Notes: generated by a model from the sequence alone, not told the origin. A stretch of 64,000 nt of DNA from an uncultured Gammaproteobacteria bacterium (GCA_964639595.1 CAZXEC010000001.1:254498-318497), one strand, 5' to 3'; shown: positions 7,381 to 51,563, counted from the stretch's first letter. Translations and numbers: made by a program.

Positions 7381-7418
7381 AATTGCCTCAAAGGTGACTC
7401 TTTCGTATAATTAGACTA

Positions 7419-25681: not shown

Positions 25682-26487
25682 TGGAAATATCTATTATCAT
25701 TGTTTCTTACAATACCAAAGATAAGTTATCTAGCCTGTTGCGATCACTTACTGATGCGGGAATTGGACTGGACTGGCAGGTAATTGTGGTTGATAATGCC
25801 TCAACCGATGGCACAGTTAAGATGCTGGAGCAGCAATTTCCTGACGTCATCCTGGTCAAAAATAACCGGAATTTAGGCTTTGCCAGGGCTTGTAATATTG
25901 GTTTTGCCAAATCAAATGGCCGGTTCTTGTTTTTTTTGAATCCCGACACAGAAATAAAACCGCAGGTGGTGGAAAAATTAGTCGAATTTGCCAGTTATCA
26001 TGCTGATTGTGGCATAGTGGCGCCTCAACTATTAAATGGTGATGGCTCGCCTCAAGCTTCGGTCAGAAACTTGCCCACCCTGTGGCGGGCCATCCGTCAG
26101 TATTGGCTGGGCCAGTTGGGAGTTTATGATTTTTACCTGCCAGGCGGAGCTGCAGTATCGGTAGAGAGTGTGACCGGAGCGGCCATGCTCATTCACCGAA
26201 ATATTTTTGAAAAAGTTGGCGGTTTTGATGAGAGATATTTTATGTATTTTGAAGATTTAGAGTTATGCCGCCAAGTTATCTCCCTGGGCTATAAAATATA
26301 TTACTTACCGCAACTGACCATTGTTCACCACAAAGGCGCCAGCGCCCAAACCATAGGTGGTAAAGCATTCCAGATGCTTAAGATAAGTAGTAAAATATAT
26401 CATGGATGGGCGCAAGCGTTCTTGATTGATGTGGTGATTAGAAGTGGGCGAATATGCAAGAAATTATTAGGTCGAAATACAAAATAG
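25678..26487 (+). CDS. GT2 glycosyltransferase
   Basis: ISIIIVSYNTKDKL, VVDNASTDGT and YFEDLELC motifs. Confidence 0.85.
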   Translation: MMEISIIIVSYNTKDKLSSLLRSLTDAGIGLDWQVIVVDNASTDGTVKMLEQQFPDVILVKNNRNLGFARACNIGFAKSNGRFLFFLNPDTEIKPQVVEKLVEFASYHADCGIVAPQLLNGDGSPQASVRNLPTLWRAIRQYWLGQLGVYDFYLPGGAAVSVESVTGAAMLIHRNIFEKVGGFDERYFMYFEDLELCRQVISLGYKIYYLPQLTIVHHKGASAQTIGGKAFQMLKISSKIYHGWAQAFLIDVVIRSGRICKKLLGRNTK

Positions 26488-28157
26488 CGGTCGTCGTTAT
26501 CCTGGTTTTTGCCGCCTTTATCCGTTTTTTTGGCCTTGATAAAATTCCGCCGGAACTGTTTGGGGATGAGTTGGATGTTGGCTATCAGGCCTATTCCATC
26601 CTCACAACCGGCAAGGATTACCTGGGACATGCCTGGCCGCTTTATTTCCAATCATTTGCCGAAGCCCGGGCGCCGTTGTTTTTATATTCGGCTGTGCCGC
26701 CGGTGGCCGCATTTGGCTTAAACGAATTGGGAATTCGCGCTGCGGCGGCCTTTTTCGGGGTGGTCGGACTGGCGCTGTTGTATTTTGTGACCAAAAAGAT
26801 GTTTGCCGACAAGCCACCGGTGGCCATCCTGGCGCTTATTTTGGGGGCCATTTCTCCCTGGCACTTACAGTATTCCCGAGCCGCTTTTGAAGTCACGCTA
26901 CTGCTATCACTTTTCCTGGCAGGATTGCTGGCCTTCCTGCTGGCTTCTAAAAAACCTGTTTGGCTAATAGTTACTGCCATCACCTGGGCCTTGATGCCGT
27001 ATACTTATAACACGGCCAGTTTATTCTTACCGTTATTCTTACTTATCATAATAATCATCTATTTTGTGGAAATTAAAAGCTGGATCAAGCTGCCTGTTTT
27101 TTGGGCTGCGGCGGTGCTGTTTATGCTGTTGCTCTTGCCTATTATTGGCGAGCAATTTGCCAAAGGGGCAGAAAGATTTGGCAATATTAATATCACCACC
27201 GATGGTTCACAGCAGCTAGAGATTAATCTCAAAAGACAACAGGATGTCAACCTATCGTCGCAGCTGTCGGCCATTTACCACAATAAACCCTTGGCTTGGT
27301 CTTATCTGGCTGCTAAAAATTATGTTACTTCGCTGTCTCCCCAGTTTTTGTTTACCGAAGGCGATCCCAGGATGAGGCATAGTGTTGGTGAGATGGGGGA
27401 GTTTTATTGGTTTCAACTGCCGCTGCTCATTTTAGGTTTGATAACTTTGGCAAAAACAGATCTAAAAGTCAGAGTCTTGCTAATTGCCTGGATATTGCTG
27501 GCGCCGGTGCCTGCCGCCCTGACTCGTGATGGCGGGCATCACGCCACCCGCTTATTTTTGCTGCTGCCGCCCCTGTTGATTATTATGGCATTGGGAGCCA
27601 GCTTTCTTTTTGATTTAGCTAAGAAAAATCTGTCATGGAAGCTTATTGCTTACAGCTTATTGCTTACAGCTGCCTTGAACATAGCTTTTTTTGCCCACCG
27701 TTATTCCGTTCATTATCCCCAGGAATCATGGCGCTGGTGGCAGGTGGGATATAGAGAGGCTTTTGGCGAAATTAAAAAAGTAGCAGGCCAGTATGACCGG
27801 ATTGTCATTAATAATACTTACGAACCGGCCCTGATCCGCTTTTTAGTCTACAACCAATACGATCCGGCGCTTTTCCAGCAGCAATTTGTTCTCGACCAGT
27901 CAATCAAAAATGTCTTGCCGGGCATTGATGGATTTTCTTTGGGCAAATATTATTTTGGCACCTTATCCGGTGATATCAGGCAGAATGGCGGCTTTTCCAA
28001 AGCCATCGCTGATGGCATGCTTTATCTGGCTTCCCAAAGGGACGAAGTGCCTGGAGATCTTAATCTGTCTAAACAACCGCCGGATAATGTTAAAGTCTTG
28101 CAAAAAATCAACAATCCATTTGGTGAGGTGATCTTTTATTTGTTGACCAAAAGATAA
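26454..28157 (+). CDS. PMT/ArnT-like (GT39-type) membrane glycosyltransferase, paralog 1 of 5
   Basis: DELDVGYQAYSIL loop motif and ISPWH motif. Same architecture as 28158, 29807, 31536 and 38850. Confidence 0.7.
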   Translation: MQEIIRSKYKIAVVVILVFAAFIRFFGLDKIPPELFGDELDVGYQAYSILTTGKDYLGHAWPLYFQSFAEARAPLFLYSAVPPVAAFGLNELGIRAAAAFFGVVGLALLYFVTKKMFADKPPVAILALILGAISPWHLQYSRAAFEVTLLLSLFLAGLLAFLLASKKPVWLIVTAITWALMPYTYNTASLFLPLFLLIIIIIYFVEIKSWIKLPVFWAAAVLFMLLLLPIIGEQFAKGAERFGNINITTDGSQQLEINLKRQQDVNLSSQLSAIYHNKPLAWSYLAAKNYVTSLSPQFLFTEGDPRMRHSVGEMGEFYWFQLPLLILGLITLAKTDLKVRVLLIAWILLAPVPAALTRDGGHHATRLFLLLPPLLIIMALGASFLFDLAKKNLSWKLIAYSLLLTAALNIAFFAHRYSVHYPQESWRWWQVGYREAFGEIKKVAGQYDRIVINNTYEPALIRFLVYNQYDPALFQQQFVLDQSIKNVLPGIDGFSLGKYYFGTLSGDIRQNGGFSKAIADGMLYLASQRDEVPGDLNLSKQPPDNVKVLQKINNPFGEVIFYLLTKR

Positions 28158-29810
28158 ATGCCTAAAACATACCTAATATTAATTTTGGTTTTGGCGGCAG
28201 TCTTGAGACTGTCTTTCTTGGGACAATTTCCCGCCGGCTTTTCAGCGGATGAGGCCAATTTCGGCTATACTGCCTATTCAATTTTAAAAACCGGACATGA
28301 CGAGTGGGGAGAGCCGTTGCCTGTTTTCCCCAGGACTTTTGGTGATTTTAAGTCGCCCATTTATATCTACTTAACAGTTCCGGCAATTGCCATTTTCGGC
28401 CTCACAGAATTTGCGGTGCGCCTGCCGGCCGCATTGCTGGGAATATTGTCAGTTGTAATTGTCTATTTTCTGGTTGGAGTTTTATTTAAAGATAATAAAA
28501 GTCAACTGTCAACTGTTAACTGTCAACTGTTGGCCAGTTTCTTGCTGGCCATCTCCCCCTGGCATTGGCCCTTATCCCGGGTGGGCATTGAGACTTCTTT
28601 AATTTCTTTTTTTACTTCGCTGGTTCTTTACAGTTTTATCAAAGCCCAAGCAAACGCCAGATGGTTGGTTGCGGCTCTGGCAGTCGCCTCGTTGGGAGTT
28701 TATTCCACCAATTCCGCCAAATTATTTTTGCCATTGATATCGGCTTTCATGTTAGCGTTTGGCTGGAAGCATTATTGGGCCAATAAAAAAATCCTTTTGA
28801 CCGGTTTGGTTGTATCAGCAGCAATCCTCTTGCCGGCCATCATTCACAGTTCGGCTTTTTCCAGGCGGGCTGCCGATGTATCAATTTTTAATCCGACTGC
28901 CGGCTGGGAAGAGGTGTCCAAAAGACAATTTGAAAGCAACCTGCCCAGAGCCCTGGAGAGAATCTTTACCAATAAATTAACCTATACCCTGGGTGAAGTT
29001 TTCAAAAATTATGTGGGCTATTATTCGCCGCAGTTTTTGTTTACCAACGGCCCGTCCGAGCCGACTTACGGCATGATTCCGGGCCGGGGAGTCTTATATA
29101 TTTTTGAACTGCCGCTGGTCGTTTTGGGCTGGGTATTTTTGTTTGTTGGCAAGCATAAATATCGCTATCTGCTCTTGTTTTGGCTGCTTAGTGCTGCTTT
29201 GCCGGCCGCCCTGTCCAAAACAGCCGAGCATGCCAGTCGGGCAGCCACCTTCCTGCCGTTATGGTCGGTAATTTCTGCTTACGGTTTTTATGAAATTTGG
29301 CAGAGATGGCAGCGCTTGAGATCCTCACGTCTGCTTCAGGCAGCCCTGACACTGGTGCTGGTGTTTTCTGTTGCTTCTTTTGCCAACGACTATTTTTTCC
29401 ATGCTCCCAAAAGATTGGCCCGGTTTATGCATTATGGCGCCAAAGAAACAGTGGCATATTTAAAATCTCAAGAAGCCGCCTACCGCTTGATTATCATGGG
29501 CCAGCCATTTTCCGAAGCCCAAGTGTTTACGGCTTTTTATCAGCCGATTGAGCCGAGAGAATATCAGAAATATGCGCCGCAATTATTAAAATACGAGCAG
29601 GGCGGTCGAACTTTTTTGGACCAGTTGCCAGTTTATACGATCGGCAAGTATGAATATCGGGGTCTTAACTGGAATGATGACAAGACCCTCAAAGGAATGT
29701 TGCTGGTGGGCAAAGCGGCTGATTTTCCGGAAAAAGTTAATGCCCAAAAAATTATTTATGATCCGGCTGGTGAGCCGCTTTATAAAATTGTTGATCCGGA
29801 AAAGTTATGA
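28158..29810 (+). CDS. PMT/ArnT-like membrane glycosyltransferase, paralog 2
   Basis: DEANFGYTAYSIL and ISPWHW motifs. It carries the (GTCAACT)x4 insert. Confidence 0.7.
   Translation: MPKTYLILILVLAAVLRLSFLGQFPAGFSADEANFGYTAYSILKTGHDEWGEPLPVFPRTFGDFKSPIYIYLTVPAIAIFGLTEFAVRLPAALLGILSVVIVYFLVGVLFKDNKSQLSTVNCQLLASFLLAISPWHWPLSRVGIETSLISFFTSLVLYSFIKAQANARWLVAALAVASLGVYSTNSAKLFLPLISAFMLAFGWKHYWANKKILLTGLVVSAAILLPAIIHSSAFSRRAADVSIFNPTAGWEEVSKRQFESNLPRALERIFTNKLTYTLGEVFKNYVGYYSPQFLFTNGPSEPTYGMIPGRGVLYIFELPLVVLGWVFLFVGKHKYRYLLLFWLLSAALPAALSKTAEHASRAATFLPLWSVISAYGFYEIWQRWQRLRSSRLLQAALTLVLVFSVASFANDYFFHAPKRLARFMHYGAKETVAYLKSQEAAYRLIIMGQPFSEAQVFTAFYQPIEPREYQKYAPQLLKYEQGGRTFLDQLPVYTIGKYEYRGLNWNDDKTLKGMLLVGKAADFPEKVNAQKIIYDPAGEPLYKIVDPEKL
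28501..28528 (+). repeat. Heptanucleotide tandem repeat (GTCAACT)x4 with one C>T variant, inside the paralog-2 coding sequence
   Basis: Directly read: gtcaactgtcaactgttaactgtcaact. It encodes SQLSTVNCQ, an insertion relative to paralogs 1 and 3. Confidence 0.85.
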
Positions 29811-31462
29811 TCAAAAAAATTATCTTAATACTGGTAATTGTTCTGGCTGCCCTGCTGCGTTTCTGGCAGCTGTCCGATTACCCGCCGCATGCCAATTGGG
29901 ACGAGGCTTCCCTGGGGTATAACGCCTATTCAATTTTAACTACCGGACGTGACGAGTGGGGGCAGTTTTTGCCTTTGACCTTTCGGGCTTTTGGCGATTA
30001 CAAATTGCCCGGTTATATCTACACTTCCGTGCCGTTTGTGGCCGCTTTTGGCTTAAACGAATTTTCCATCCGTTTTGCCTCGGCTTTTTTTGGCACACTG
30101 ACAGTCCTGCTGGTCTTTTTGTTAGCCAGGCTTTTGACCCGGAAATATTCTCTGGCAACAATTGCGGCCTTCTTGCTGGCCATTTCTCCCTGGCATGTCT
30201 TTTTATCCCGGATTGCCCTGGAAGCCAATCTGGCCCTGTTTTTCCTGGTCTTGGGAATTTTCCTTTTTGTCAAATTTATTACACAGTTTGAGAACAGGAT
30301 AGCACCCCAGCTTATTTTGCTTATCGCTTGCCCCTTGTCCCTTGTTGCTGCTTTATATACTTACAACAGCGCCAGAGTGGTGGTACCATTGTTGGTTTTA
30401 TTACTGGCTGCCAATTATTACTCCCTGCTGAAAAAATTAAAAAAACAGTTGGTACTGATGCTGGTACTTTTGGTGGTTTTATCTGTGCCGGCTTTTTCTC
30501 TGGCCATCAAGCAGGATTCCAGCGCCCGCTATCGTTGGACTGCTATTTTAGACGAGGGGGCAACCAACTTCATCAATGAATCGCGCCGGACCTCTGCCTA
30601 CCCCACACCCCTCAAAGAGCTTGTTTATAACAAAATCACTTATACCCTGCCAAGAGTAGTGGCTGGGTATCTGTCGCATTTTAGCCCGGACTTTTTATAT
30701 TTTAAGGGCGGCAGTAATTTTCAATTTAATATTCCCGGGTTTGGATTGTTTTACCCTCTGGAAATGCCGTTTCTGGTTTTGGGGGTGATGGTGGCTTTCT
30801 GGCAAAAAAGCCCCTGGAGATGGCTGCTTATAGGTTGGATGTTGACCGGCCCCATTCCGGCTGCCATTACCCGTGATGCGCCTCATGCTCTGCGGTCGCT
30901 TTTTATGATGCCCGCCCCGCAGATTTTAGAAGCCTTTGGCCTGTTGTGGTTTTTGGATTCTTTGAAAAAGCCGGTCTTGGAAAGAGCCCTGGCTGTTGGC
31001 TTTGGACTGATTTTTGTGGTCGCCAGTTTTTTCTATTGGCAACTTTATACCAATCTTTACACCAGAGATTATTCCTGGTCCTGGCAATACGGTTATAAAC
31101 AAGCCATTGCTTATGTTGAAAAAAACCAGGACAAATATCAACAGATTATCGTGACCAAAAAATACGGGGAGCCGCATATTTTCCTGTTGTTTTACACTCA
31201 CTATCCGCCGGACCAGTATAGAAACGATCCGCAGCTGAAACGTTACTTTCAAACCGATTGGTACTGGGTAGATAGTTTTTATAAATATCAATTCATCAAT
31301 GACTGGGATATCAAACAAAAGGGGAGAGAAATTCAGATTAAAAAGGGCGGCCAACCAACTCTGCTTGTTGCCAGCCCCGGCAATTATCCGGTTGATGCCA
31401 AATTGGTGGAGAGTATCTATTTCCTGGACGGCAAAAAAGCCTTTGATCTGGTGGAGTTGTAG
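29807..31462 (+). CDS. PMT/ArnT-like membrane glycosyltransferase, paralog 3
   Basis: DEASLGYNAYSIL and ISPWHVF motifs. Confidence 0.7.
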   Translation: MIKKIILILVIVLAALLRFWQLSDYPPHANWDEASLGYNAYSILTTGRDEWGQFLPLTFRAFGDYKLPGYIYTSVPFVAAFGLNEFSIRFASAFFGTLTVLLVFLLARLLTRKYSLATIAAFLLAISPWHVFLSRIALEANLALFFLVLGIFLFVKFITQFENRIAPQLILLIACPLSLVAALYTYNSARVVVPLLVLLLAANYYSLLKKLKKQLVLMLVLLVVLSVPAFSLAIKQDSSARYRWTAILDEGATNFINESRRTSAYPTPLKELVYNKITYTLPRVVAGYLSHFSPDFLYFKGGSNFQFNIPGFGLFYPLEMPFLVLGVMVAFWQKSPWRWLLIGWMLTGPIPAAITRDAPHALRSLFMMPAPQILEAFGLLWFLDSLKKPVLERALAVGFGLIFVVASFFYWQLYTNLYTRDYSWSWQYGYKQAIAYVEKNQDKYQQIIVTKKYGEPHIFLLFYTHYPPDQYRNDPQLKRYFQTDWYWVDSFYKYQFINDWDIKQKGREIQIKKGGQPTLLVASPGNYPVDAKLVESIYFLDGKKAFDLVEL

Positions 31463-31535
31463 ATAAATTAAGAATTGATAATTTACTCCACTTCGTCCGT
31501 CAGCCAACGGACTACGATGGGCACAGCAATTTACA

Positions 31536-33263
31536 ATGACGAGCAAAATATTATTTGCAACTATTTTATTGATTGCCTTTGTGTTGCGGTTCTGGCAACT
31601 GGGCCAGTCTCCCAGCCTGTATTGGGACGAGCCGGCCATCGGCTACAATGCCTATTCCATTCTGACCACCGGCCGTGACGAGTATGGCAATGTCTTCCCC
31701 TTCACCTTCCGCTCATTTGATGACTATAAAGCTCCCGGCTATATTTATCTGACAGTCCCGTCTGTTGCTATTTTTGGCCTCACAGAATTTGCCGTTCGCT
31801 TCCCCTCGGCCCTGCTGGGAGTGTTAACCGTGGCGCTAGTTTATTTCTTAGTGGGAGAGCTACTTAAATTAGGTCGCAGTCAGCAGTCCAGCAGTCAGCG
31901 GTTTGCTGTTTGCTGTCAGCTGTTATCTATGGCCTCGCTGGCCATCTCCCCCTGGCACATCCATGTTTCTCGGATTGGCTTTGAAGCCAACGCCGCCGTA
32001 TTTTTCCTGACTCTGGGCATATTTCTATTCGTCAAGTTTATTGACGAATCCAAGAGTCAAGCCCCGCGAAGTCCGTCGGCTGACGGACGAAGTAGGGCTA
32101 CGTCTACCTTCTTGCTTATCGCTTTCCCCTTGCCCCTTATCGCTTCTTTATATACTTATCACAGCTCCAGATTATTAATACCGCTTCTTCTTACGGTATA
32201 TTTGATATTTTTCTGGAAAAAGTTCAATAAACAACTTCTGGTTAAGTTGGCGCTGGTGGTGTTAGTTTTATTAATCCCGCTTGCTCTTGTGATGCTGCGT
32301 CCGGAAACTCAAAACAGGGTGATTTGGTCCAGTCTTTTTTCCTACCAGCGGCCACCTGAAGAAATTAACCGGTTGGCTCAAATTGATCAGGCCCAAAGGC
32401 AAGATTTATCTTTTGGCCTATTGCATTCGGAGCCGGAATATTTTACCAAGGGTTTCCTGTCGCGCATGACCAATCATCTCTCGCCGATATTTTTATTCCT
32501 GAAAGGCGATGATAATCAGCGGTTGGGATTTGGCACCGTCGGTATTTATTATCTGTTTGAACTGCCGTTTTTTATACTGGGTGTCGTCTTTTTAACAAAG
32601 CATAAAACCACGGCTGTAATTTTATTACCTTGGTTTTTATTGGGAATTTTGCCGGCGGCACTGACCCGCGACCAAACTAACCTGCTCCGATCCCTCAACG
32701 CTTATGTGGCGGGAAATATCATCATCGGTTTGGGCGCGGCTTCGTTTTACCAGTACCTAACAGCCGGAAAAGTATTGGTCAGATCAGTAATTTTTATTCC
32801 CATGGCCGGTCTGATCTTGTGGAATGTGGGGTTTTTCCTGGATAATTATTTCGTCCATTACGCCAACAGAACCGCCCCATATTGGCAATATGGCTATAAG
32901 CAGGTAGTATCCAAGGTTTCAGCTTTGCAAGATAAATATGACAAGATTTACGTCTCCACCGACTACGGCCAGCCTTATATTTATTTCTTGTTTTACCAAA
33001 AATATCCGCCGGCCAAATATCAGCCGCAAGCCAGGCTTGTCAAAGACCCCCACAGCGTTGATGTGGGTGAAGGTGCCGGATATGATAAATTTGAGTTTCG
33101 CAAACTTTACTGGCCGGCTGATCGGGGTTTGAGAAAGAGTTTGTTTGTCGGCTCGCCGGAACAGCTGCCGGAAAAAGACATTGACCCCAAAGAGGCCCGC
33201 ATCATTGACCGTGTGTATTTCCCCAACGGCCCGGAGGCCTTTAGAATAGTGGAGACGTTATAA
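31536..33263 (+). CDS. PMT/ArnT-like membrane glycosyltransferase, paralog 4
   Basis: DEPAIGYNAYSIL and ISPWHIH motifs. It contains two low-complexity inserts (31877-31920 and 32065-32095). Confidence 0.7.
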   Translation: MTSKILFATILLIAFVLRFWQLGQSPSLYWDEPAIGYNAYSILTTGRDEYGNVFPFTFRSFDDYKAPGYIYLTVPSVAIFGLTEFAVRFPSALLGVLTVALVYFLVGELLKLGRSQQSSSQRFAVCCQLLSMASLAISPWHIHVSRIGFEANAAVFFLTLGIFLFVKFIDESKSQAPRSPSADGRSRATSTFLLIAFPLPLIASLYTYHSSRLLIPLLLTVYLIFFWKKFNKQLLVKLALVVLVLLIPLALVMLRPETQNRVIWSSLFSYQRPPEEINRLAQIDQAQRQDLSFGLLHSEPEYFTKGFLSRMTNHLSPIFLFLKGDDNQRLGFGTVGIYYLFELPFFILGVVFLTKHKTTAVILLPWFLLGILPAALTRDQTNLLRSLNAYVAGNIIIGLGAASFYQYLTAGKVLVRSVIFIPMAGLILWNVGFFLDNYFVHYANRTAPYWQYGYKQVVSKVSALQDKYDKIYVSTDYGQPYIYFLFYQKYPPAKYQPQARLVKDPHSVDVGEGAGYDKFEFRKLYWPADRGLRKSLFVGSPEQLPEKDIDPKEARIIDRVYFPNGPEAFRIVETL

Positions 33264-33752: not shown

Positions 33753-34244
33753 GTGCTCAATTCATTCGAACCTGGGGAAATCCGGCTTAAAAAATTATTA
33801 AATACAATGCCTGTCGAACATGGTCTATCTCTGCCGGAAACAGAACTGGATAAACTGCGTCATCTAAAAGAGCGGTTAGTGGGAGAAGACCGCTTAAAAT
33901 TCAACATTGGCAGGCTATGCTTATCTTATGTCCGATTCCGAGTCTATGTGGAAGCAATCACCAGTGCCGAGGCATCTTTGCCAGAACGGGCGTGCCAATC
34001 CATAGAATTTGTGGATGGGATACTCAAGCATTGCCTTGCCAATACTTTCACTTCTATACTGCGGACGGAAAATCCAGACCTGATAGGTTACGCCACACTA
34101 TTATTGGAGCAACAGCGAGGTTTTCTTAACGGCGATCTTGACTATTTGACTTTTCCCATTCCATTCAGTCATGGCATGGACATTCAGGGTCTGCTGTGGA
34201 GTAATCCTGAAGCGGAAACCCGCAAACCGGAGAGCTGGCGGTGA
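33753..34244 (+). CDS. Hypothetical protein (163 aa, GTG start) immediately upstream of the CRISPR array
   Basis: ORF only, with no recognisable motif. It ends 18 nt before repeat 1. Confidence 0.35.
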   Translation: MLNSFEPGEIRLKKLLNTMPVEHGLSLPETELDKLRHLKERLVGEDRLKFNIGRLCLSYVRFRVYVEAITSAEASLPERACQSIEFVDGILKHCLANTFTSILRTENPDLIGYATLLLEQQRGFLNGDLDYLTFPIPFSHGMDIQGLLWSNPEAETRKPESWR

Positions 34245-34262
34245 AAGAGAAACTAATAGACA

Positions 34263-34811
34263 GTTGCATTCCTTAATTCTTCTTAAGAGGTTCTGCAGGC
34301 TGTTTATACAAATCGAGTTCTATCTCCATACTTAGTTGCATTCCTTAATTCTTCTTAAGAGGTTCTGCAGGGCGTCAAAACGAGCTGGTTAAGTTGAAGT
34401 CTTAACGGTTGCATTCCTTAATTCTTCTTAAGAGGTTCTGCAGGCAAAAAGGGACGCATAACTGCATCCCGTAATTTAAGTTGCATTCCTTAATTCTTCT
34501 TAAGAGGTTCTGCAGGTTCTGATATATAATAGTTAAAAGAAGCCCGAAGTTGAAGTTGCATTCCTTAATTCTTCTTAAGAGGTTCTGCAGGTTCTAATAA
34601 TAACTGCTTAAACCCTCGTTTACTTCCAAAGTTGCATTCCTTAATTCTTCTTAAGAGGTTCTGCAGGTTAAATGCAGCTATGAAATATCATGGAGAATTT
34701 GGTTGCATTCCTTAATTCTTCTTAAGAGGTTCTGCAGGGGTGATGGCACCGCCAAAACAGGTGTTGAAGATATAGTTGCATTCCTTAATTCTTCTTAAGA
34801 GGTTCTGCAGG
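34263..34811 (-). CRISPR. CRISPR array of 8 identical 37-bp repeats (plus strand GTTGCATTCCTTAATTCTTCTTAAGAGGTTCTGCAGG) and 7 spacers of 34-39 bp
   Basis: Repeats start at 34263, 34335, 34408, 34480, 34555, 34631, 34702 and 34775. An internal CTTAA/TTAAG stem is present. The minus-strand transcription call is inferred from the cas gene orientation and from the repeat reverse complement ending in AAGGAATGCAAC (see findings). Confidence 0.95.
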
Positions 34812-35095
34812 AGCTCTGAATTTGAGGCTAAGAATTGACCTTTTAACCCCCAAATTTTTAGTGAACCCCTTTTCTGCATAAAATATGTCAAGGTTCGCAG
34901 ATTCTCTGTAAAACCCAAAGAGAAGAACTAAAAATTGTAGTGTTCAGTCCACTTTAGTCCTAAGGGGCTAAAGTTTTCCTATTGCTTTTGAACGGTAACG
35001 AGGACCTAAAGCAAGCCCACTCTACTGCTGTGCAACACAGCCCTTGCATAATTCTCAAGCATATAGCTGAGAACTCGTCGTTAAAAACGATAATA
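34812..35095. ncRNA. Non-coding region between the array and the effector gene; candidate leader and tracrRNA locus
   Basis: 284 bp without a plausible ORF. It contains repeat-like fragments: TCAAGGTTCGCAGATTCTC (34888-34906) and CTTGCATAATTCTCAAGC (35043-35060, resembling the repeat 5' half with two short deletions), plus a GCTGTG-CAA-CACAGC hairpin (35026-35040). Confidence 0.3.
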
Positions 35096-36853
35096 TCAGA
35101 TTTTTATCTCTTTGTAAAGCGCATTTGCGATATTGATTGCGGCATTTAGATCGGCATTCATATTATGGCCACATTCTCGATTAACACATCTAAAAAAACC
35201 TTTGTTTCTGTCACCAGTCTTATGACACATTGAACATATTTGCGATGTATACTCTGGATTTATAAATCTTATCGGTATTCCGGCTTTCAAGGCTTTGTAT
35301 TCAATGAGTTTTTGTAGTTTACCATAAGAAAAATTTGATAGCATAAATCTTATTTTTCTTTCTTGTAATGCAGTTCCTTTCTTGATTCTTTTTTCTCCTT
35401 GGGTAATTTTTAGCTTTTCCATTGCAATCACGATTGGTTTTAATTCTTTGGCCTGATTAACAATTTGTCTTGAAAAGTTATGGAGCATATAATCTGAAAT
35501 TCTAGCTACTTTTTTCCCAAACTGCGCCCGACGTTTATTCACACCTTTTGTCCCCGTAAACTTTTTCCTAATGAGCTGGTACTTTGTCTTTTGGGCCATT
35601 AATCCGTGGCCAGGATAAAATTTGATGAAGCAAGGTTTACCATTGGGTTTATCGACCACAGCCGTAACAGCCGTCTGATTAACGCCTCTATCTATACCCA
35701 TAATTTTAGTCTTGCTATCTATTTTCGGTTCCTCAAATTCTTGAACTAGAGGATAGCTGAGGTAAAAATTGCCCCGTTTTCTTAGCAATAGAGGATATTT
35801 AAGCTCTCCCTCTTTAATTTTTCTTATGATATCCAGAAACCAACTCTTATTTTTTTCTGATTTTATAGTATTAACGATCAGAGTAAATTTCTCTTGTTTG
35901 CCATCAATACTCAATTTCACAAATTGCTCGTTAATATCTTTTACAGATGTGTTTTGTAAATCGACAATATTCCCCTTGAAAAGTACTTTTGTTTCTTTGA
36001 GTCTTTTTTGAAGCTTTTCAATGGTTTTATTTAACGCTTCTATGGTCCCTCGTATTGTAGATTCCGTTTTACCTCTTGATGGATTCTCCTTAAAAAGAAT
36101 ATGTTTATAGCGATCAACTCTTTGGTTTTGCTGACGAGGTAATGTAAATCTACTTGTAGTGTTTTTTTGTTTTATTTCATCTTTTAATCGATTTAAAACA
36201 TCTAACACTCCTGCGTTATTTTTGTAACGTTCTAACCATTTTTTGAGAGTAGTTGATGCGATCTTGTCATTATCTAAAACTTCTTGCCATTCAATTGCTC
36301 GACGTTGCGTTATAAAAATAGTTGAGTACACATTATTTAATTGTTTTTTGTATGAATTCAGCGTATCGTTTGCGCGTTTAAAAGCTAACGCATACTCTGT
36401 GCCGGGCAATTTGACAGCATCTCTCACATCTCCATATTGGCTACGTTTTCTATTGCCTGTTGCATATAAAATCTTTCTAATTGAGAATTCTTTATTCCAA
36501 CATTTGCCACAAACTAATTCTATGCCGTCCTTCTTTTTGCGGATTATTAATGATTTCTGCCCACAAGTCTTACATATTTTATTACGGTCGTTCCTGTTCT
36601 TACCTTCTGGTTTGTGCCCTTTGCAGGATACATAACTTTTTAAGCAATAAGAGCACTTTCCATTCAATCCTTGGCTGCCACCTGTGTCCTTTTTAATAAA
36701 CTCATAATTGTTTCGTTGACCCTCTTCTACTATTTGAATTTTTTTCGCAAAAAAGTTGACAGCCTTACTAAATCTACTAAAGTATGACTCTAAAAAATCT
36801 TCCTGTGTTAAAGTAGGAACAAACTTAAAACTATATGAGGTAGTAAGTTTCAT
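35096..36853 (-). CDS. Compact type V effector, TnpB-like Cas12f/Cas14-like nuclease (585 aa)
   Basis: RuvC-I (IMGIDRGVNQTAV), RuvC-II (IVIAMEKLK) and RuvC-III (NADLNAAINIANALY) motifs. A CxxC...CxxC zinc finger (YTSQICSMCHK ... CVNRECGH) sits between RuvC-II and RuvC-III. There is an extra N-terminal Cys-rich zinc ribbon (CSYC ... CKTCGQ ... CGKCW). It is located between cas4 and the array. Confidence 0.85.
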   Translation of the reverse strand: MKLTTSYSFKFVPTLTQEDFLESYFSRFSKAVNFFAKKIQIVEEGQRNNYEFIKKDTGGSQGLNGKCSYCLKSYVSCKGHKPEGKNRNDRNKICKTCGQKSLIIRKKKDGIELVCGKCWNKEFSIRKILYATGNRKRSQYGDVRDAVKLPGTEYALAFKRANDTLNSYKKQLNNVYSTIFITQRRAIEWQEVLDNDKIASTTLKKWLERYKNNAGVLDVLNRLKDEIKQKNTTSRFTLPRQQNQRVDRYKHILFKENPSRGKTESTIRGTIEALNKTIEKLQKRLKETKVLFKGNIVDLQNTSVKDINEQFVKLSIDGKQEKFTLIVNTIKSEKNKSWFLDIIRKIKEGELKYPLLLRKRGNFYLSYPLVQEFEEPKIDSKTKIMGIDRGVNQTAVTAVVDKPNGKPCFIKFYPGHGLMAQKTKYQLIRKKFTGTKGVNKRRAQFGKKVARISDYMLHNFSRQIVNQAKELKPIVIAMEKLKITQGEKRIKKGTALQERKIRFMLSNFSYGKLQKLIEYKALKAGIPIRFINPEYTSQICSMCHKTGDRNKGFFRCVNRECGHNMNADLNAAINIANALYKEIKI

Positions 36854-36855
36854 CG

Positions 36856-37452
36856 TTAGTTAATATTCTTATAACAATTATCAATTGCTTTTCTCTTATT
36901 CCTTGTCCCCTTTGGTAATCTTTCTGATTGTATTATACTCTCAATCTCGTTAAAAATCTTTAATAATTCATCTTTTAGTGCTTTTGTAATCCTTACCCTT
37001 ATAAAGTCCCCTGATTTTAGAAACTTAACAAAACCAAACGGCACTTTATATCCTAACCTCTCTTCTATTAATAAAGCCTCCATGATAACCTGAAATTTTT
37101 GTGACAGATACAAAAATTTAGGTTTTGAACTATATTTTACTTGAATAGGATAAGCTTCATGTAGTTTTTTGTTAATTGCAACACAATCTACCTTTGTAGA
37201 GATTTTATACTTACTAGATGTCAAGTATACGTCATATATTTTAGCTAAAAACGGCAACTCTTTGATTACCTTATTTCTTCTTGACTTTCTAGAGAATTCG
37301 ACATATTTTTGCCTACCCTCGATTTCCTTAATTGTTGTAGCTTGGGGAATTTTGAGGACGTGAATGTAATATATAATTCTAGGATCATAAAGGTAATTCA
37401 TTAAGTCGGTGGCTGTTAAATAATTTTGCATCGGTTTAAATAAATATAACAT
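36856..37452 (-). CDS. cas4: Cas4-like PD-(D/E)xK nuclease-fold protein lacking the Fe-S cysteine cluster
   Basis: The N-terminus YLTATDLMNYLYDPRIIYY matches the Cas4 hTGTDhxxYxYCPR signature with Cys replaced by Asp. There is a central VDCVAI ... PIQVKY motif and a QKFQVIMEALLIEE motif (QhxxY-like). Only one C-terminal Cys is present instead of the usual three. It overlaps cas2 by 17 nt. Confidence 0.6.
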   Translation of the reverse strand: MLYLFKPMQNYLTATDLMNYLYDPRIIYYIHVLKIPQATTIKEIEGRQKYVEFSRKSRRNKVIKELPFLAKIYDVYLTSSKYKISTKVDCVAINKKLHEAYPIQVKYSSKPKFLYLSQKFQVIMEALLIEERLGYKVPFGFVKFLKSGDFIRVRITKALKDELLKIFNEIESIIQSERLPKGTRNKRKAIDNCYKNIN

Positions 37453-37720
37453 CTCTATTTTTTATTAAAAACTCATTGGCCGGCCCGAATGCAATCCTCT
37501 TTGAAAACTCCTCCTCACTTGATGGGAAGATGAGAACCTTGTCATTTTTTGATTTCATTATCTTTTTAATCTCTAAACTTAGCATTTCTGCCTTATTTCT
37601 AGTCAAATTTCCTGAAAAGGCACTTTTTTGTATCCGTTTTAACCCGTAATCCTTACAGAGATTGGATACTTTACTCCGAATATTATTTTTGGAAATATCG
37701 TAGATAACCCAATAGACCAT
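37436..37720 (-). CDS. cas2: Cas2 (94 aa)
   Basis: MVYWVIYDIS ... N-terminus with the catalytic Asp, typical length, and position between cas1 and cas4. Confidence 0.85.
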   Translation of the reverse strand: MVYWVIYDISKNNIRSKVSNLCKDYGLKRIQKSAFSGNLTRNKAEMLSLEIKKIMKSKNDKVLIFPSSEEEFSKRIAFGPANEFLIKNRDVIFI

Positions 37721-37724
37721 AGTC

Positions 37725-38714
37725 CTACTTATAAATATAAGGTGAAAAATCTCTTTTATTACCTAATAGATATGCAGAAATTTCCCTAGTCTGTGCAAGT
37801 ATGATATCTCTCAAAATTAATTTCTTACCTTTGTAAGTAAGTTTGGTATTTAGTCTGTTGATTACAGCTTGAATTAGTTTTCTTTTACCTTTTTGTGATA
37901 GTGTGAGATCACCGGTTTTATCAAAATCCTTACCATTAATCTGTTTCCTATTAAACAATGTGACTATCGCTCTGTCCGAAATAGCTACTCTAAATAACTC
38001 TGTGACGTCTAAGACCAGTGACGGTTTACCGTATCTATCTGTATGATAGAAGCCCAAGTATGGGTCAAGTCCAGCTATAATGCAGGCTCTCTCAACTTCA
38101 GAATAGAGCATGCCATATGCATAATTTAGGCAGACATTAAACATGTCTTCACCGTTTTTATTTCTTTTGGTAAATCCTGTTATAAGCCCCAGGCCCCTGA
38201 AGTATTTTGCTGCAGTTGCCCCCTCCACTCCTAAAAGTGTGCTTCTTAGTTTATCAATAGGATTACTAGTAATGAGCTTGCTTTTTGGGAATTTTGTTTT
38301 GCTTAACTGATTTAATTGTGTATTAGTTTTTCTGTCTTTTGACAGAGATTTCAAATAATTAATCTGACTTCTAATTTTGCCTTCAACGAATTTAACAATT
38401 AGATGCTTCCCCTTTTTTGATAAATATGCCTCAAGTTGTTTTCTACGAGTTAAGGTCGTTCCACCCATATATGGACTATACGTTCTGGCGAAGGGTTTCC
38501 CTTTCCAATCTAGATAAACAATATCAATATGCTTTTCAATGGCTAACTTTACAGCTTCTGTGGAGATACTGGCAGGGGCGGTAAATAACACTTGTCTGAT
38601 TGTATCAGCTGAATATTCACTTTTTTTACCTTTATTATTTACTATCAGCCTATTACCAGACTTAGTTAGGTAAGTTCCAACTTCTTCTATTGCAAGAACA
38701 GAGTTATTAATCAT
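37725..38714 (-). CDS. cas1: Cas1 integrase (329 aa)
   Basis: Typical Cas1 layout with a conserved acidic/His cluster (NYAYGMLYSEVERA ... GFYHTDRYGKPSLVLDVTELFR). It is the first gene of the minus-strand cas1-cas2-cas4-cas12 operon. Confidence 0.9.
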   Translation of the reverse strand: MINNSVLAIEEVGTYLTKSGNRLIVNNKGKKSEYSADTIRQVLFTAPASISTEAVKLAIEKHIDIVYLDWKGKPFARTYSPYMGGTTLTRRKQLEAYLSKKGKHLIVKFVEGKIRSQINYLKSLSKDRKTNTQLNQLSKTKFPKSKLITSNPIDKLRSTLLGVEGATAAKYFRGLGLITGFTKRNKNGEDMFNVCLNYAYGMLYSEVERACIIAGLDPYLGFYHTDRYGKPSLVLDVTELFRVAISDRAIVTLFNRKQINGKDFDKTGDLTLSQKGKRKLIQAVINRLNTKLTYKGKKLILRDIILAQTREISAYLLGNKRDFSPYIYK

Positions 38715-38722
38715 AGGTAGAT

Positions 38723-38751
38723 ATTATAGGACTAAGTGAGTAATATTTCAA
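38723..38751 (-). promoter_or_regulatory. Candidate sigma70 promoter for the cas operon (minus strand TTGAAA-17 nt-TATAAT); the -10 element ends 8 nt before the cas1 ATG, implying a leaderless or near-leaderless transcript
   Basis: The reverse complement of 38715-38751 reads TTGAAATATTACTCACTTAGTCCTATAATATCTACCT followed by ATG. Confidence 0.4.
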
Positions 38752-38849: not shown

Positions 38850-40556
38850 ATGGATAAAAAGGGGCTGGTAAACTGGCTGTTTGTGGCTGTGGTGGCACTG
38901 GCTGTGGTCTTGCGGTTGTATAACCTGACCCAATATCCGCCGGGGTTTACGGCTGATGAGGCGGCCATTGGCTATAATGCCTATTCGCTGCTGCAGACCG
39001 GCCGTGATGAATACGGCACGCCCTGGCCTCTGGTGTTCCGCTCCTTTGATGACTATAAACCCCCGTTATATTTCTATTTAGTGCTGCCGTTTATGGCCGT
39101 GTTGGGGCCAACCGAGCTGGCAGTGCGGCTGCCGTCGGCCTTGTTGGGGATTGGAACAGTTGTTTTGGTATATTTTCTGGCAAAGAGACTTGCTTACAGC
39201 CGACAGCAGATAGCCGACAGCTATATGCCACTGGCAGCCAGTTTCCTGCTGGCAATCAACCCCTGGCATCTGCACTATTCACGCGGCGGCTGGGAAGCCA
39301 ACGCCGGCACCTTCTTTTTGACCCTTGGCATATTTCTATTCGTCAAGTTTCTTGCAGATTCCCAATTAGCCACGCAAGGCGTCCCCTTGCGAAGCTATAG
39401 TAGCAGGGGGCCGTTATTGTTACTGATTGCTTCTGTCTTGTCTCTGATTGCCGCTTTCTACACTTATCACAGCATCAGGGTGGTGGCGCCGGTGCTGTTT
39501 GCCCTCTATGCAATACTTTTTTGGCGACAGCTCTGGCCGGCAAAAAAGGCGGTCATTTGGGCAGTGATGGCAGGAGGAGCGTTGCTTATTCCCCTGGCTC
39601 TGCAGTTTGTGTCAGGCAGTGGGGCAGCCCGCTTTGCCGGAGTGGGCATCTTTGCCGATAGCGGACCCTTTTGGCAGGTTAATCAGGCCCGGGGGGAACA
39701 TGCCAACCTAACAGGTATTGATGCCCGACTGTTCCATAATAAAGTAGCCGCCTACACCTTAAGTTTTGCCGGGCATTACCTGGATCATTTCACTGGCCAG
39801 TTCCTGTTTTTTGGCGGTGATGCCATTGGCCGCAATAACGTGCCGGAGATGGGCCAGCTGTATGTCTGGGAAATATTGACTTTAATAATTGGCTTGTGGC
39901 TGGCGGCCAGACAAGGTGGGCTACCAGCTAAAATAGTTTTGCCCTGGCTGCTTATTGCCCCGCTGGCAGCCTCACTGACCTTCCAGACGCCCCATGCTCT
40001 GCGGGCTGCCAACATGGCCGTGCCCCTGGCAATAATCTCCGGCTATGGCCTGTCTGTCCTCTTGGCCTGGATTTGGCAAATTCGCCGGGCAGCTGCGCGC
40101 TATTTGTTACTGCTGCTTACTGCCAGCTGTCTGCTGTTGGCTTTTGTTAAGTATCTGCACCAGTATTATGTCCATATTTCCCAGGAGCGGGCCCTGGAAT
40201 GGCAGTATGGTTTTGACCAATTGGTGCCGTTTGTGCTTGCCAAGCAAGATCAGTATAATAAGGTGGTCATAACCGATCGGTACGACCAGCCCTACATTCT
40301 CATGTTATTCTATTCAAAGTACGATCCCGCCCAATACCAACCCCAGGCCCAACTCTCCAGCCGCGACCGGTTTGGTTTTGGCACGGTGCGGGCTTTTGAC
40401 AAATATGAATTTAGACACATCACTCCCGATGAAGTAGAAAAGGCCACAAATACCCTGTTTGTCTTATCCGGTGATGAAGTTTATGAAGGAGTTAGTGTGC
40501 AAAAGACCATTGCCTTCCCCAATGGGAAGGTGGCTTTTGCCATGGTGGAAAAATGA
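38850..40556 (+). CDS. PMT/ArnT-like membrane glycosyltransferase, paralog 5
   Basis: DEAAIGYNAYSLL and INPWHLH motifs. It shares an identical 24-nt stretch (GGCATATTTCTATTCGTCAAGTTT) with paralog 4 (32018 vs 39320). Confidence 0.7.
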   Translation: MDKKGLVNWLFVAVVALAVVLRLYNLTQYPPGFTADEAAIGYNAYSLLQTGRDEYGTPWPLVFRSFDDYKPPLYFYLVLPFMAVLGPTELAVRLPSALLGIGTVVLVYFLAKRLAYSRQQIADSYMPLAASFLLAINPWHLHYSRGGWEANAGTFFLTLGIFLFVKFLADSQLATQGVPLRSYSSRGPLLLLIASVLSLIAAFYTYHSIRVVAPVLFALYAILFWRQLWPAKKAVIWAVMAGGALLIPLALQFVSGSGAARFAGVGIFADSGPFWQVNQARGEHANLTGIDARLFHNKVAAYTLSFAGHYLDHFTGQFLFFGGDAIGRNNVPEMGQLYVWEILTLIIGLWLAARQGGLPAKIVLPWLLIAPLAASLTFQTPHALRAANMAVPLAIISGYGLSVLLAWIWQIRRAAARYLLLLLTASCLLLAFVKYLHQYYVHISQERALEWQYGFDQLVPFVLAKQDQYNKVVITDRYDQPYILMLFYSKYDPAQYQPQAQLSSRDRFGFGTVRAFDKYEFRHITPDEVEKATNTLFVLSGDEVYEGVSVQKTIAFPNGKVAFAMVEK

Positions 40557-51557: not shown

Positions 51558-51563
51558 CATATC

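Follow-up and report, generated by a model that had tools for sequence, protein, structure and literature searches.

The minus-strand cassette at 34263-38751 of the window (the whole 64,000-nt stretch of DNA that was analysed) raises the question of whether a miniature RuvC nuclease, a set of adaptation genes and a repeat array form a known CRISPR-Cas system, a new one, or a chance neighbourhood. The operon runs in the order cas1-cas2-cas4-effector and is followed by a tracrRNA region, a leader and the array. The cas1 gene (37725-38714, 329 aa) encodes the spacer integrase (Pfam Cas_Cas1, 239 bits; TIGR00287, 269 bits), cas2 (37436-37720, 94 aa; Pfam CRISPR_Cas2, 73 bits; TIGR01573, 55 bits) begins 4 nt past cas1, cas4 (36856-37452, 198 aa) overlaps cas2 by 17 nt, and the effector gene (35096-36853, 585 aa) begins 2 nt past cas4. 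Genes, gaps, overlap and array thus lie where the first-pass annotation had placed them. The identities of Cas1, Cas2 and Cas4 agree with Pfam, NCBIfam and PADLOC profile searches, and each product exceeds its curated family cut-off; an adaptation module is present in the locus. A consensus scan revealed a promoter-like site (TTGAAA-17-TATAAT, 11/12 matches, minus strand, 38723-38751) 9 nt ahead of the start codon of cas1, and from this consensus match only we infer that it acts as promoter of the cas operon. We propose, with a probability of about 0.88, that a Candidatus Daviesbacteria bacterium carries here, integrated in its chromosome, a type V-F2-like CRISPR-Cas system for adaptive immunity that is probably active. 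It is a divergent member of the known Cas12f family and not a new kind of system.

The array (34263-34811, minus strand) contains eight exact copies of a 37-nt repeat (GTTGCATTCCTTAATTCTTCTTAAGAGGTTCTGCAGG on the plus strand, CCTGCAGAACCTCTTAAGAAGAATTAAGGAATGCAAC in the crRNA sense), starting at 34263, 34335, 34408, 34480, 34555, 34631, 34702 and 34775, and seven spacers of 34-39 nt, each of them unique. This agrees with the 37-bp-repeat array with seven spacers described before and is far above chance expectation. An array next to the effector gene is also seen in relatives, where degenerate terminal repeats sit at the leader-distal end, which indicates the polarity of the array.

The best profile for the effector was NCBIfam Cas12f2 (NF049972), which covered nearly the whole protein with 364 bits, and the PADLOC Cas14b profile matched residues 5-584 with 229 bits. 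An AlphaFold2 model (pLDDT 83) found only Cas12f complexes among its top 17 PDB fold matches. The RuvC catalytic residues D388 (GIDRG), E479 (AME) and D568 (NADLNAA) are intact; the motifs aligned to them in AsCas12f and TnpB are GIDLG, MED and NADYNAA. The cysteines C540/C543/C556/C561 form the TNB zinc finger (Pfam Cas12f1-like_TNB, residues 510-575, 73 bits), and an N-terminal zinc-finger region comprises C67/C70/C77/H80 and C94/C97/C115/C118. The split RuvC, the CxxC zinc finger and the N-terminal Cys ribbon noticed in the first-pass annotation are therefore present, and these motifs are conserved across an alignment of 17 homologues; D568 is substituted in one of them (P0016), in which N replaces the RuvC-III aspartate. 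Profile search, structure prediction and alignment of the D/E/D residues had been suggested as checks on the effector, and judged by its sequence profiles and predicted fold it is a Cas12f. With 585 aa it also lies in the range of about 400-700 aa expected of a type V-F effector. Type V-F with an adaptation module thus stood, but the label Cas14a-like did not. Un1Cas12f1 (Cas14a1; PDB 7C7L, 7L48) shares the overall Cas12f fold, whereas its protein similarity is confined to the C-terminal RuvC/TNB half (residues 320-583 only, 29-33 bits), and membership of Cas14a/Cas12f1 over the whole length was rejected. Since the Cas12f2 profile is matched over nearly the full length and Cas14a1 only in the C-terminal half, the effector is by sequence Cas14b/Cas12f2-like (V-F2) rather than Cas14a-like.

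A RuvC and zinc-ribbon (TNB) core is also shared with TnpB of IS200/IS605 and IS607 elements, and the 585-aa protein could be such a transposon-associated TnpB beside an unrelated array. The generic TnpB family HMM NF040570 is indeed passed (134 bits, cut-off 100), and a 63%-identical relative is publicly annotated as 'RNA-guided endonuclease TnpB family protein'. However, the IS607 TnpB model NF038280 yielded 38 bits where 350 are required, and the N-terminal part of the effector is 210 residues larger. A transposon-borne TnpB would sit between element ends together with TnpA and take its guide RNA from the end of the element. No transposase ORF, TnpA included, was found over 32-41 kb of the window; instead of signs of a transposon the locus has cas1, cas2 and cas4, the latter 2 nt upstream of the effector gene, with tracrRNA and array downstream. 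The RNA encoded downstream base-pairs with the CRISPR repeat, and the order cas1-cas2-cas4-effector-tracr-array is kept in related loci, amid bacterial housekeeping genes and in differing genomic neighbourhoods. Locus context, profile scores and repeat pairing refute a transposon-borne TnpB in practice, and we regard this explanation as barely tenable.

Between the effector stop codon and the first repeat lie 284 nt (35095-34812), which the first-pass annotation had taken for about 280 bp of plain non-coding DNA. By comparative sequence analysis this gap encodes a predicted tracrRNA of ∼160-180 nt (34906-35083, minus strand), conserved and co-varying in 13 related loci. RNAalifold on these loci gave 39 base pairs, 27 of them with compensatory changes, and 94% of the alignment cells were paired; none of 500 shuffles reached the observed values, and slid controls had at most 12 compensatory pairs. 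Folded alone, the RNA has z = -1.7. Stem 1 (35074-35051) is followed by a hairpin bearing an invariant GUUGCA (35041-35027), by further stems at 35014-34982 and 34973-34952, and by an anti-repeat of ∼30 nt (34936-34906) that pairs with nearly the entire repeat. The repeat:anti-repeat duplex reaches -25.8 kcal/mol, and wherever complementarity is not perfect the two form a G:U pair, which holds only if both RNAs are read off the minus strand. In one related locus (L011) a diverged repeat pairs with its own anti-repeat at -29.3 kcal/mol, compared to -6.5 to -13.2 kcal/mol with those of others; repeat and anti-repeat co-evolve. In addition, the invariant GUUGCA loop has its complement in UGCAAC, the invariant sequence at the 3' end of the repeat.

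The tracrRNA would be transcribed from a predicted minus-strand promoter at 35090-35118 (TTTACA, 17 nt, TG-n-TATTAT; consensus scan, 10/12 matches plus the TG), whose -35 box lies inside the last cas12f codons and whose extended -10 TG is provided by the stop codon TGA. This arrangement over the effector stop codon recurs in the majority of the 13 related loci. Promoter prediction, another check that had been suggested, gave a candidate site for the tracrRNA, but the consensus scan gave no promoter-like site of its own for the array. The leader (34812-34905, minus strand), defined by conservation in the alignment of related loci, carries a hairpin-like element at 34898-34861 (GCGAACCTTGACA...GGGGTTCAC) and a conserved TTAGCCTCAAA motif at 34831-34820. 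Since the 4-bp stem of the hairpin shows zero compensatory changes, the role of this leader element is putative.

The guide RNA of Un1Cas12f1 provides a further comparison. Our 37-nt repeat and the repeat portion of the engineered ge3.0 guide scaffold agree in 27/37 positions; TGCAGAACC (5' side) and AAGGAATGCAAC (3' end) are common to both. The tracrRNA hairpin GGGCUG-UUGCA-CAGC, with a loop complementary to the repeat 3' end, is likewise similar, while overall tracrRNA similarity stays at the level of shuffled controls (28 vs 22 ± 4).

Cas4 is atypical. A canonical Cas4 has four cluster cysteines (Cx..CxxCx5C) and a D...ExK catalytic motif, whereas the protein encoded here keeps one of the four Fe–S cluster cysteines (C193, at the C-terminus) and is not a canonical 4Fe-4S Cas4. 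It reads YLYDPR where DPANN relatives read YCPR, and Q104 occupies the position of the canonical ExK glutamate, with PIQVK aligning to PVEYK of the Cas4 in PDB 8D3L. Despite the missing ligands it passes the Cas4 family HMM TIGR00372 (78 bits, cut-off 65), and it shares 45-53% identity with Cas4 proteins of DPANN archaea. Due to the lacking Fe–S ligands and the Q at ExK, spacer trimming may differ from canonical systems.

How far the system departs from established type V-F2 can be judged from the validated set Mi1Cas12f2/Cas14b4, Mi2Cas12f2/Cas14b17 and AuCas12f2/Cas14b18 (Karvelis et al. 2020, PMC7229846). The locus plan of cas1, cas2, cas4, miniature RuvC effector, tracrRNA and array is that of V-F2, and the tracrRNA sits in the position used for Cas12f2 in that study. 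Mi2Cas12f2 (RLG21245.1), a validated PAM-dependent dsDNA nuclease (PMC7229846), is 30% identical to our effector over residues 3-580 (E 7e-56), and an Aenigmarchaeota Cas12f2 (548 bits on NF049972) is 33% identical. The score of 364 bits is below the 450-bit cut-off at which NCBI assigns the curated name Cas12f2. Effectors of the CPR clade range from 343 to 401 bits on this HMM, compared to 502-574 bits for archaeal Cas12f2 proteins including Mi2Cas12f2, and in a neighbour-joining tree drawn without support values the CPR clade is monophyletic and adjoins the archaeal Cas12f2 proteins. An inserted N-terminal CxxC...C..H segment distinguishes most members of the clade, but is absent from P0016 and P0017. 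Together with the low identity to validated and archaeal Cas12f2 and the loss of three of four Cas4 cysteines, these features would fit a CPR-specific new type V subtype or V-F sub-subtype, in which the extra zinc site and the Fe–S-less Cas4 mark a functional departure. Yet Cas12f2 is by far the top-scoring family, the system matches V-F2 in the order of its genes, the place of the tracrRNA, the length and 3' end of the repeat and the size of the protein, and the Mi2Cas12f2 alignment spans N- to C-terminus with the zinc-finger region included. In Cas4, the replacement of E by Q also occurs in DPANN relatives, and some DPANN Cas4 proteins likewise lack C-terminal cysteines. The first-pass annotation had suggested a distinct subtype from protein size and N-terminal ribbon; this fails on both counts, as validated Cas12f2 proteins have 544, 586 and 603 aa, a range that includes our 585 aa, and Mi2Cas12f2 also has N-terminal CxxC pairs besides RuvC D/E/D and TNB zinc finger. 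A new subtype is therefore unlikely, and assignment to a divergent branch of V-F2-like systems is preferred.

Whether the locus still functions is a separate matter. No protospacer for any of the seven spacers was found in IMG/VR (24-26-nt exact seeds) or INPHARED, Cas4 is atypical, and some relatives are clearly decayed: L003 retains effector, tracrRNA and two degenerate repeats without cas1, cas2 and cas4, nothing but a truncated cas4 is left in L008 and L009, and P0016 has lost its RuvC-III aspartate. All this could indicate a decaying or silent remnant that looks intact but no longer acquires spacers or interferes. Against such decay, none of the four ORFs is broken and they are tightly coupled, 8/8 repeats are identical, and catalytic residues, tracrRNA structure and both predicted promoters are kept. 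The same effector and tracrRNA were also found in two other sequencing runs, where the contigs break at the first repeat. We consider a remnant quite improbable and a probably active system the better explanation.

Type V-F2 is characterized by RNA-guided dsDNA cleavage adjacent to a 5' T-rich PAM, with a cut at about protospacer position 21. As the searches above gave no target for any spacer, a PAM and cleavage activity are assigned to our system by analogy. In analogy to Mi1Cas12f2, Mi2Cas12f2, AuCas12f2 and Un1Cas12f1, the array would be transcribed off the minus strand, and each repeat would be paired by the tracrRNA, the duplex then being processed, presumably by RNase III. The effector, probably as a homodimer, would bind one tracrRNA:crRNA guide, find dsDNA beside a 5' T-rich PAM and cut it by a single RuvC site (D388/E479/D568). 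Cas1-Cas2 and the Fe–S-less Cas4 may add new spacers at the leader-proximal end.

A CPR-like bacterial host had been suspected from promoters and gene content. In agreement with this, the window's M24 peptidase has a counterpart with 100% identity in a protein named as Candidatus Daviesbacteria, located on the same 458-kb contig as the effector; by this sequence identity the host belongs to Candidatus Daviesbacteria, within the Candidate Phyla Radiation (CPR). The proposed glycosylation-island context was also recovered, with many PMT/PMT_2 genes, YfhO, GT2, GT4, a flippase and the M24 peptidase. Within it the locus is a low-GC island (31-35%, flanks 44-53%) between paralogous glycosyltransferase genes, and its nearest relatives outside CPR are found in DPANN archaea. 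The GC contrast and the likeness of Cas4 to DPANN Cas4 suggest that the module was probably acquired horizontally and that it and the Cas14-type systems found in DPANN archaea have a common origin. The effector clade has so far been seen only in CPR/Patescibacteria contexts. As a refinement of the first-pass annotation, a bacterial Cas12f2, AuCas12f2, is already published (PMC7229846), and close relatives in public Patescibacteria MAGs carry a TnpB label. The Microgenomates-group CPR lineage seldom encodes CRISPR-Cas, but CasY occurs there (Chen et al. 2019, PMC6509639). CRISPR-CasY (Cas12d) is thus likewise a type V system of Microgenomates-group CPR bacteria, while its effector belongs to an unrelated family and is with 1,153-1,287 aa far larger than the 585-aa protein described here.

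The effector of the window is a divergent Cas12f2/Cas14b-like (V-F2-like) protein, encoded in a packed minus-strand cassette with all adaptation genes. The genes cas1 (38714-37725, 329 aa; Cas1 match of 239 bits), cas2 (37720-37436, 94 aa; Cas2 match of 73 bits), cas4 (37452-36856, 198 aa) and the effector ORF (36853-35096, 585 aa) are separated by a 4-nt gap, a 17-nt overlap and a 2-nt gap, respectively; Pfam, NCBIfam and PADLOC support all three Cas assignments. A consensus scan placed a promoter-like site (TTGAAA-17-TATAAT) directly upstream of cas1. The effector stop codon lies 284 nt from the first repeat of the CRISPR array (34263-34811), which consists of eight exact 37-nt repeats and seven unique spacers of 34-39 nt each. 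This agrees throughout with the first-pass annotation, which had described a packed cas1-cas2-cas4-effector operon, a gap of ∼280 bp and a 37-bp-repeat array with 7 spacers. No signs of decay were seen in the window copy. The consensus scan found no sigma-70-like minus-strand promoter for the array, and a tRNA scan of the window returned zero tRNAs. An ORF of 163 aa (33753-34244, plus strand) stops 18 nt short of the array on its distal side and has no Pfam or NCBIfam match; since its GC content is like that of the host, it probably does not belong to the cassette.

The top NCBIfam family of the effector is Cas12f2 (NF049972, 364 bits), and the PADLOC Cas14b profile covers residues 5-584 (229 bits). 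The protein also passes the generic NCBIfam model for RNA-guided TnpB, and Pfam, NCBIfam and PADLOC all recognize a Cas12f-type TNB zinc ribbon at its C-terminus. An IS607-specific TnpB was considered and rejected, the effector falling far short of the cut-off of that model. When solved structures were searched by sequence, matches (TnpB, AsCas12f and Un1Cas12f1) were confined to the RuvC/TNB half at the C-terminus. The earlier assignment as Cas14a-like had to be given up, since the Cas12f2/Cas14b profiles score best and Un1Cas12f1 reaches only 29-33 bits over this C-terminal half. Sequence and fold searches with the effector retrieved no Cas12f2 structure from the PDB copy searched.

When 1.84 billion cluster representatives were searched exhaustively with HMMER, only 38 clusters reached E < 1e-30. 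One of them holds RLG21245.1, listed as Mi2Cas12f2 (Cas14b17) and among the three Cas12f2 proteins shown to cut dsDNA beside a 5' T-rich PAM (Karvelis et al. 2020, PMC7229846). Pairwise, the effector aligns with Mi2Cas12f2 from residue 3 to 580 (30% identity, E 7e-56) and shares 33% identity with an Aenigmarchaeota protein. The NF049972 cut-off of 450 bits is exceeded by Mi2Cas12f2 as well as by two archaeal relatives (502-574 bits), while the window protein, its close relatives P0015 and P0017 and the nearby clusters P0020 and P0024 reach 343-401 bits. In a neighbour-joining tree without support values this clade is monophyletic and stands beside the archaeal Cas12f2 proteins. The 17 top PDB matches of the AlphaFold2 model of the effector (17 homologues; pLDDT 83) are all Cas12f complexes. 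All 17 homologues share D388, E479, R549 and the four TNB cysteines, and all but one keep D568. Thus profile searches, predicted fold, tree placement and RuvC catalytic residues all upheld the broader expectation of a Cas12f-type effector. The size and the N-terminal zinc ribbon of the protein, from which a distinct subtype had been suggested, do not set it apart: validated Cas12f2 proteins have 544, 586 and 603 aa, and Mi2Cas12f2 likewise carries N-terminal CxxC pairs. Specific to the clade is an extra CxxC...C..H segment (C67, C70, C77, H80), present in most members and adjoining the invariant C94/C97/C115/C118.

The gap between effector and array is a tracrRNA gene. It had been taken as plain non-coding DNA, a reading that did not survive the comparison with related loci, as it encodes a conserved, co-varying RNA that pairs with the repeat. 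DNA around effector homologues was gathered and yielded a tracrRNA alignment of 13 distinct loci, in which the stretch from effector to array is strongly conserved. RNAalifold predicted 39 base pairs, 27 of which have at least one sequence changed on both sides with the pair kept; 94% of the cells are paired, and none of 500 column shuffles reached the observed values. When the partners were slid by 1-3 columns, paired cells fell to 25-46% and pairs changed on both sides to at most 12. An anti-repeat of ∼30 nt (34936-34906) pairs with nearly the entire repeat (-25.8 kcal/mol), and all its deviations from full complementarity are C-to-T or A-to-G on the minus strand. Such changes result in G:U pairs only when the minus strand encodes both RNAs, which fixes the direction of transcription. 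In the related locus L011 the repeat has strongly diverged in its middle and the anti-repeat has changed alongside; the cognate duplex reaches -29.3 kcal/mol versus -6.5 to -13.2 kcal/mol for non-cognate ones. Furthermore, an invariant hairpin loop, GUUGCA (35036-35031), is complementary to the invariant 3' end of the repeat, UGCAAC. The published guide scaffold of Un1Cas12f1 contains a similar hairpin (GGGCUG-CUUGCA-UCAGCC), and 27 of 37 positions in the repeat part of this scaffold agree with the window repeat. In Cas12f1 structures this hairpin loop pairs with the repeat end. Overall sequence homology of the tracrRNA to that scaffold was no better than in shuffled controls, leaving one hairpin motif in common.

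The tracrRNA promoter is predicted by consensus scan at 35118-35090 on the minus strand (TTTACA-17-TG-n-TATTAT). Its -35 box lies inside the last codons of the effector (Leu-Tyr-Lys), and the stop codon TGA provides the TG. Most of the 13 loci show this arrangement, which in one of them falls within a longer ORF. A conserved element downstream of the anti-repeat (34898-34861) and the TTAGCCTCAAA motif near the first repeat (34831-34820) are taken as putative leader elements. Rfam matched no known RNA family in the gap and array, either at gathering thresholds over the whole window or at permissive E-values over 34100-35300. Three further candidates were dropped. A long-range GACGAG/CTCGTC helix from the single-sequence fold was 70% paired, not exceeding shuffles, and had no covariation support; pairing of the conserved AAGAGGUUC element with the 5' half of the repeat (GAACCUCUU) showed no co-variation across loci and was not adopted. 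A plus-strand "terminator-like" match of the consensus scan (34951-34974) is the complement of the co-varying tracrRNA stem CTTTAGCC...GGACTAAAG and therefore an element of RNA structure rather than a plus-strand terminator.

As to the mechanism, the analysis establishes which parts are present, that the RNA is structured and pairs with the repeat, in which direction transcription runs and that the catalytic residues are intact. By analogy to Cas12f2 and Cas12f1, the pre-crRNA:tracrRNA duplex would be processed, and an effector dimer would sit on one guide, recognize a 5' T-rich PAM and cut dsDNA by its RuvC domain, while Cas1-Cas2 together with Cas4 would insert spacers leader-proximally. In related arrays the terminal repeats on the far side are degenerate, in keeping with this polarity.

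The Cas4 protein is atypical. In the alignment of Cas4 relatives (P0351-P0409), the Cas4 proteins of the Candidate Phyla Radiation (CPR) clade, i.e. of the systems whose effectors group with the window protein, read YLYDPR where DPANN relatives read YCPR, and have one cysteine in place of the RCxDCCYxxxC of the latter. Therefore, three of the four Fe–S ligands are lost in CPR-clade Cas4; within the clade only the Cas4 of L011 (5408-6004) keeps all four cysteines. The ExK glutamate is replaced by glutamine (PIQVK, aligned to PVEYK in the Cas4 of PDB 8D3L), and this glutamine is common to most DPANN relatives. The window protein nonetheless scores above the cut-off of the Cas4 family model TIGR00372 (78 versus 65 bits). 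C-terminal cysteines are likewise missing from three of the aligned DPANN-type relatives, of which one is named Pacearchaeota and another Nanoarchaeota. An Fe–S-less Cas4 offers a natural test of the share of cluster and nuclease site in spacer acquisition.

A CPR-like bacterial host, as suggested by the first-pass annotation, was confirmed by the M24 peptidase at 12960-14012, which shares the contig with the effector and matches an NCBI protein of "Candidatus Daviesbacteria bacterium" with 100% identity. One relative is named Patescibacteria group bacterium and another belongs to Candidatus Woykebacteria RBG_13_40_15. The genes next to related cassettes are bacterial (ribosomal-protein genes, groEL, mreB and pheST), and the neighbourhood differs from cassette to cassette. 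A scan of JGI metagenomes found only two clade loci, neither of them new, and three distant relatives, and a scan of GTDB genomes gave one further clade locus, from Candidatus Woykebacteria. The cassette has a GC content of 31-35% compared to 44-53% in its flanks, and is placed between paralogous PMT-family glycosyltransferase genes in a long run of glycosylation genes. Cas4 proteins from Aenigmarchaeota, Nanoarchaeia, Diapherotrites, Woesearchaeota and further DPANN archaea share 45-53% identity with the window Cas4, which suggests a shared descent with Cas14-type systems of DPANN and probable horizontal transfer. Since the closest relatives outside the CPR are found in DPANN archaea, the data point to an exchange of defence cassettes between CPR and DPANN, both ultra-small cells.

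CRISPR-Cas is rare in CPR bacteria (PMC6509639), and the window adds to the few known cases a complete system of 4.6 kb whose nuclease has 585 aa. The exact window sequence is already public and a bacterial Cas12f2, AuCas12f2, has been published; our literature search found no paper on V-F systems in Patescibacteria. In public annotation one close relative is called only "TnpB family protein" and the others are unnamed, therefore V-F systems of this sort are probably under-counted. Beyond the first reading, the analysis mainly contributes a model of the tracrRNA, the placement of the effector with Cas14b and not Cas14a, the identification of the host and the atypical Cas4. Only three Cas12f2 proteins were tested by Karvelis et al. 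(PMC7229846); the clade provides 17 natural variants and a well-defined tracrRNA model, useful for guide design and the engineering of miniature editors. The window system is a member of a divergent V-F2-like clade. We consider it unlikely that the CPR clade forms a functionally distinct V-F lineage, in which an Fe–S-less Cas4 (probably not a nuclease, with only a PAM-reading or structural role in adaptation) could combine with a second N-terminal zinc site of the effector and a tracrRNA promoter in the last effector codons, possibly with tracrRNA, leader and array on one transcript. If true, this would make it a self-contained 4.6-kb immunity cassette moving between DPANN archaea and CPR bacteria.

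The spacers gave no hint to their targets: all seven as exact seeds of 24-26 nt had zero targets in IMG/VR, and blastn against INPHARED found zero for the seven full spacers and for 17 spacers from related arrays. No self-matches occurred in the window with up to 9 mismatches allowed, and no effector relatives were found on viral contigs.

Degraded relatives exist, some without cas1 and cas2 and one with N at the RuvC-III aspartate. The latter, P0016 (locus L021, 1498-3147), is the exception at D568 and reads ANLNAA for ADLNAA; its locus retains cas2, cas4, the tracrRNA and one repeat, and the protein could be a nuclease-dead natural variant or reflect a sequencing error. Locus L003 of Candidatus Woykebacteria (6001-7900) has effector, tracrRNA and two degenerate repeats without cas1, cas2 and cas4, and L008 (5623-8200) and L009 keep of these three genes only a truncated cas4 (109-129 aa), next to effector, tracrRNA and a short array. 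In L006 a lone repeat copy (∼8134) lies 282 nt past the end of a 12-repeat array; the interval holds a small ORF on the reverse strand. Four fetched loci carry a PDDEXK_3 (PF13366) nuclease-fold gene directly upstream of cas1 (L006 2726-3193, L007 172-639, L012 1054-1518, L019 1207-1665), representing three distinct cassettes, since the one in L006 is also that of L007. The window lacks this gene, which may have an accessory role in the cassette.

The 64 kb also hold at least nine PMT/PMT_2 (GT-C) paralogues (409-1959, 26454-33263, 38850-40556, 49404-53150, 55507-59148), four of them in tandem right beside the CRISPR island and one a 1213-aa methyltransferase-GT2-PMT_2 fusion. Perfect or near-perfect heptamer tandem repeats in the glycosylation run, AGTTGTC x4.4 (11839-11869) and GTCAACT x4.3 (28501-28530), could allow phase variation by slipped-strand mispairing.
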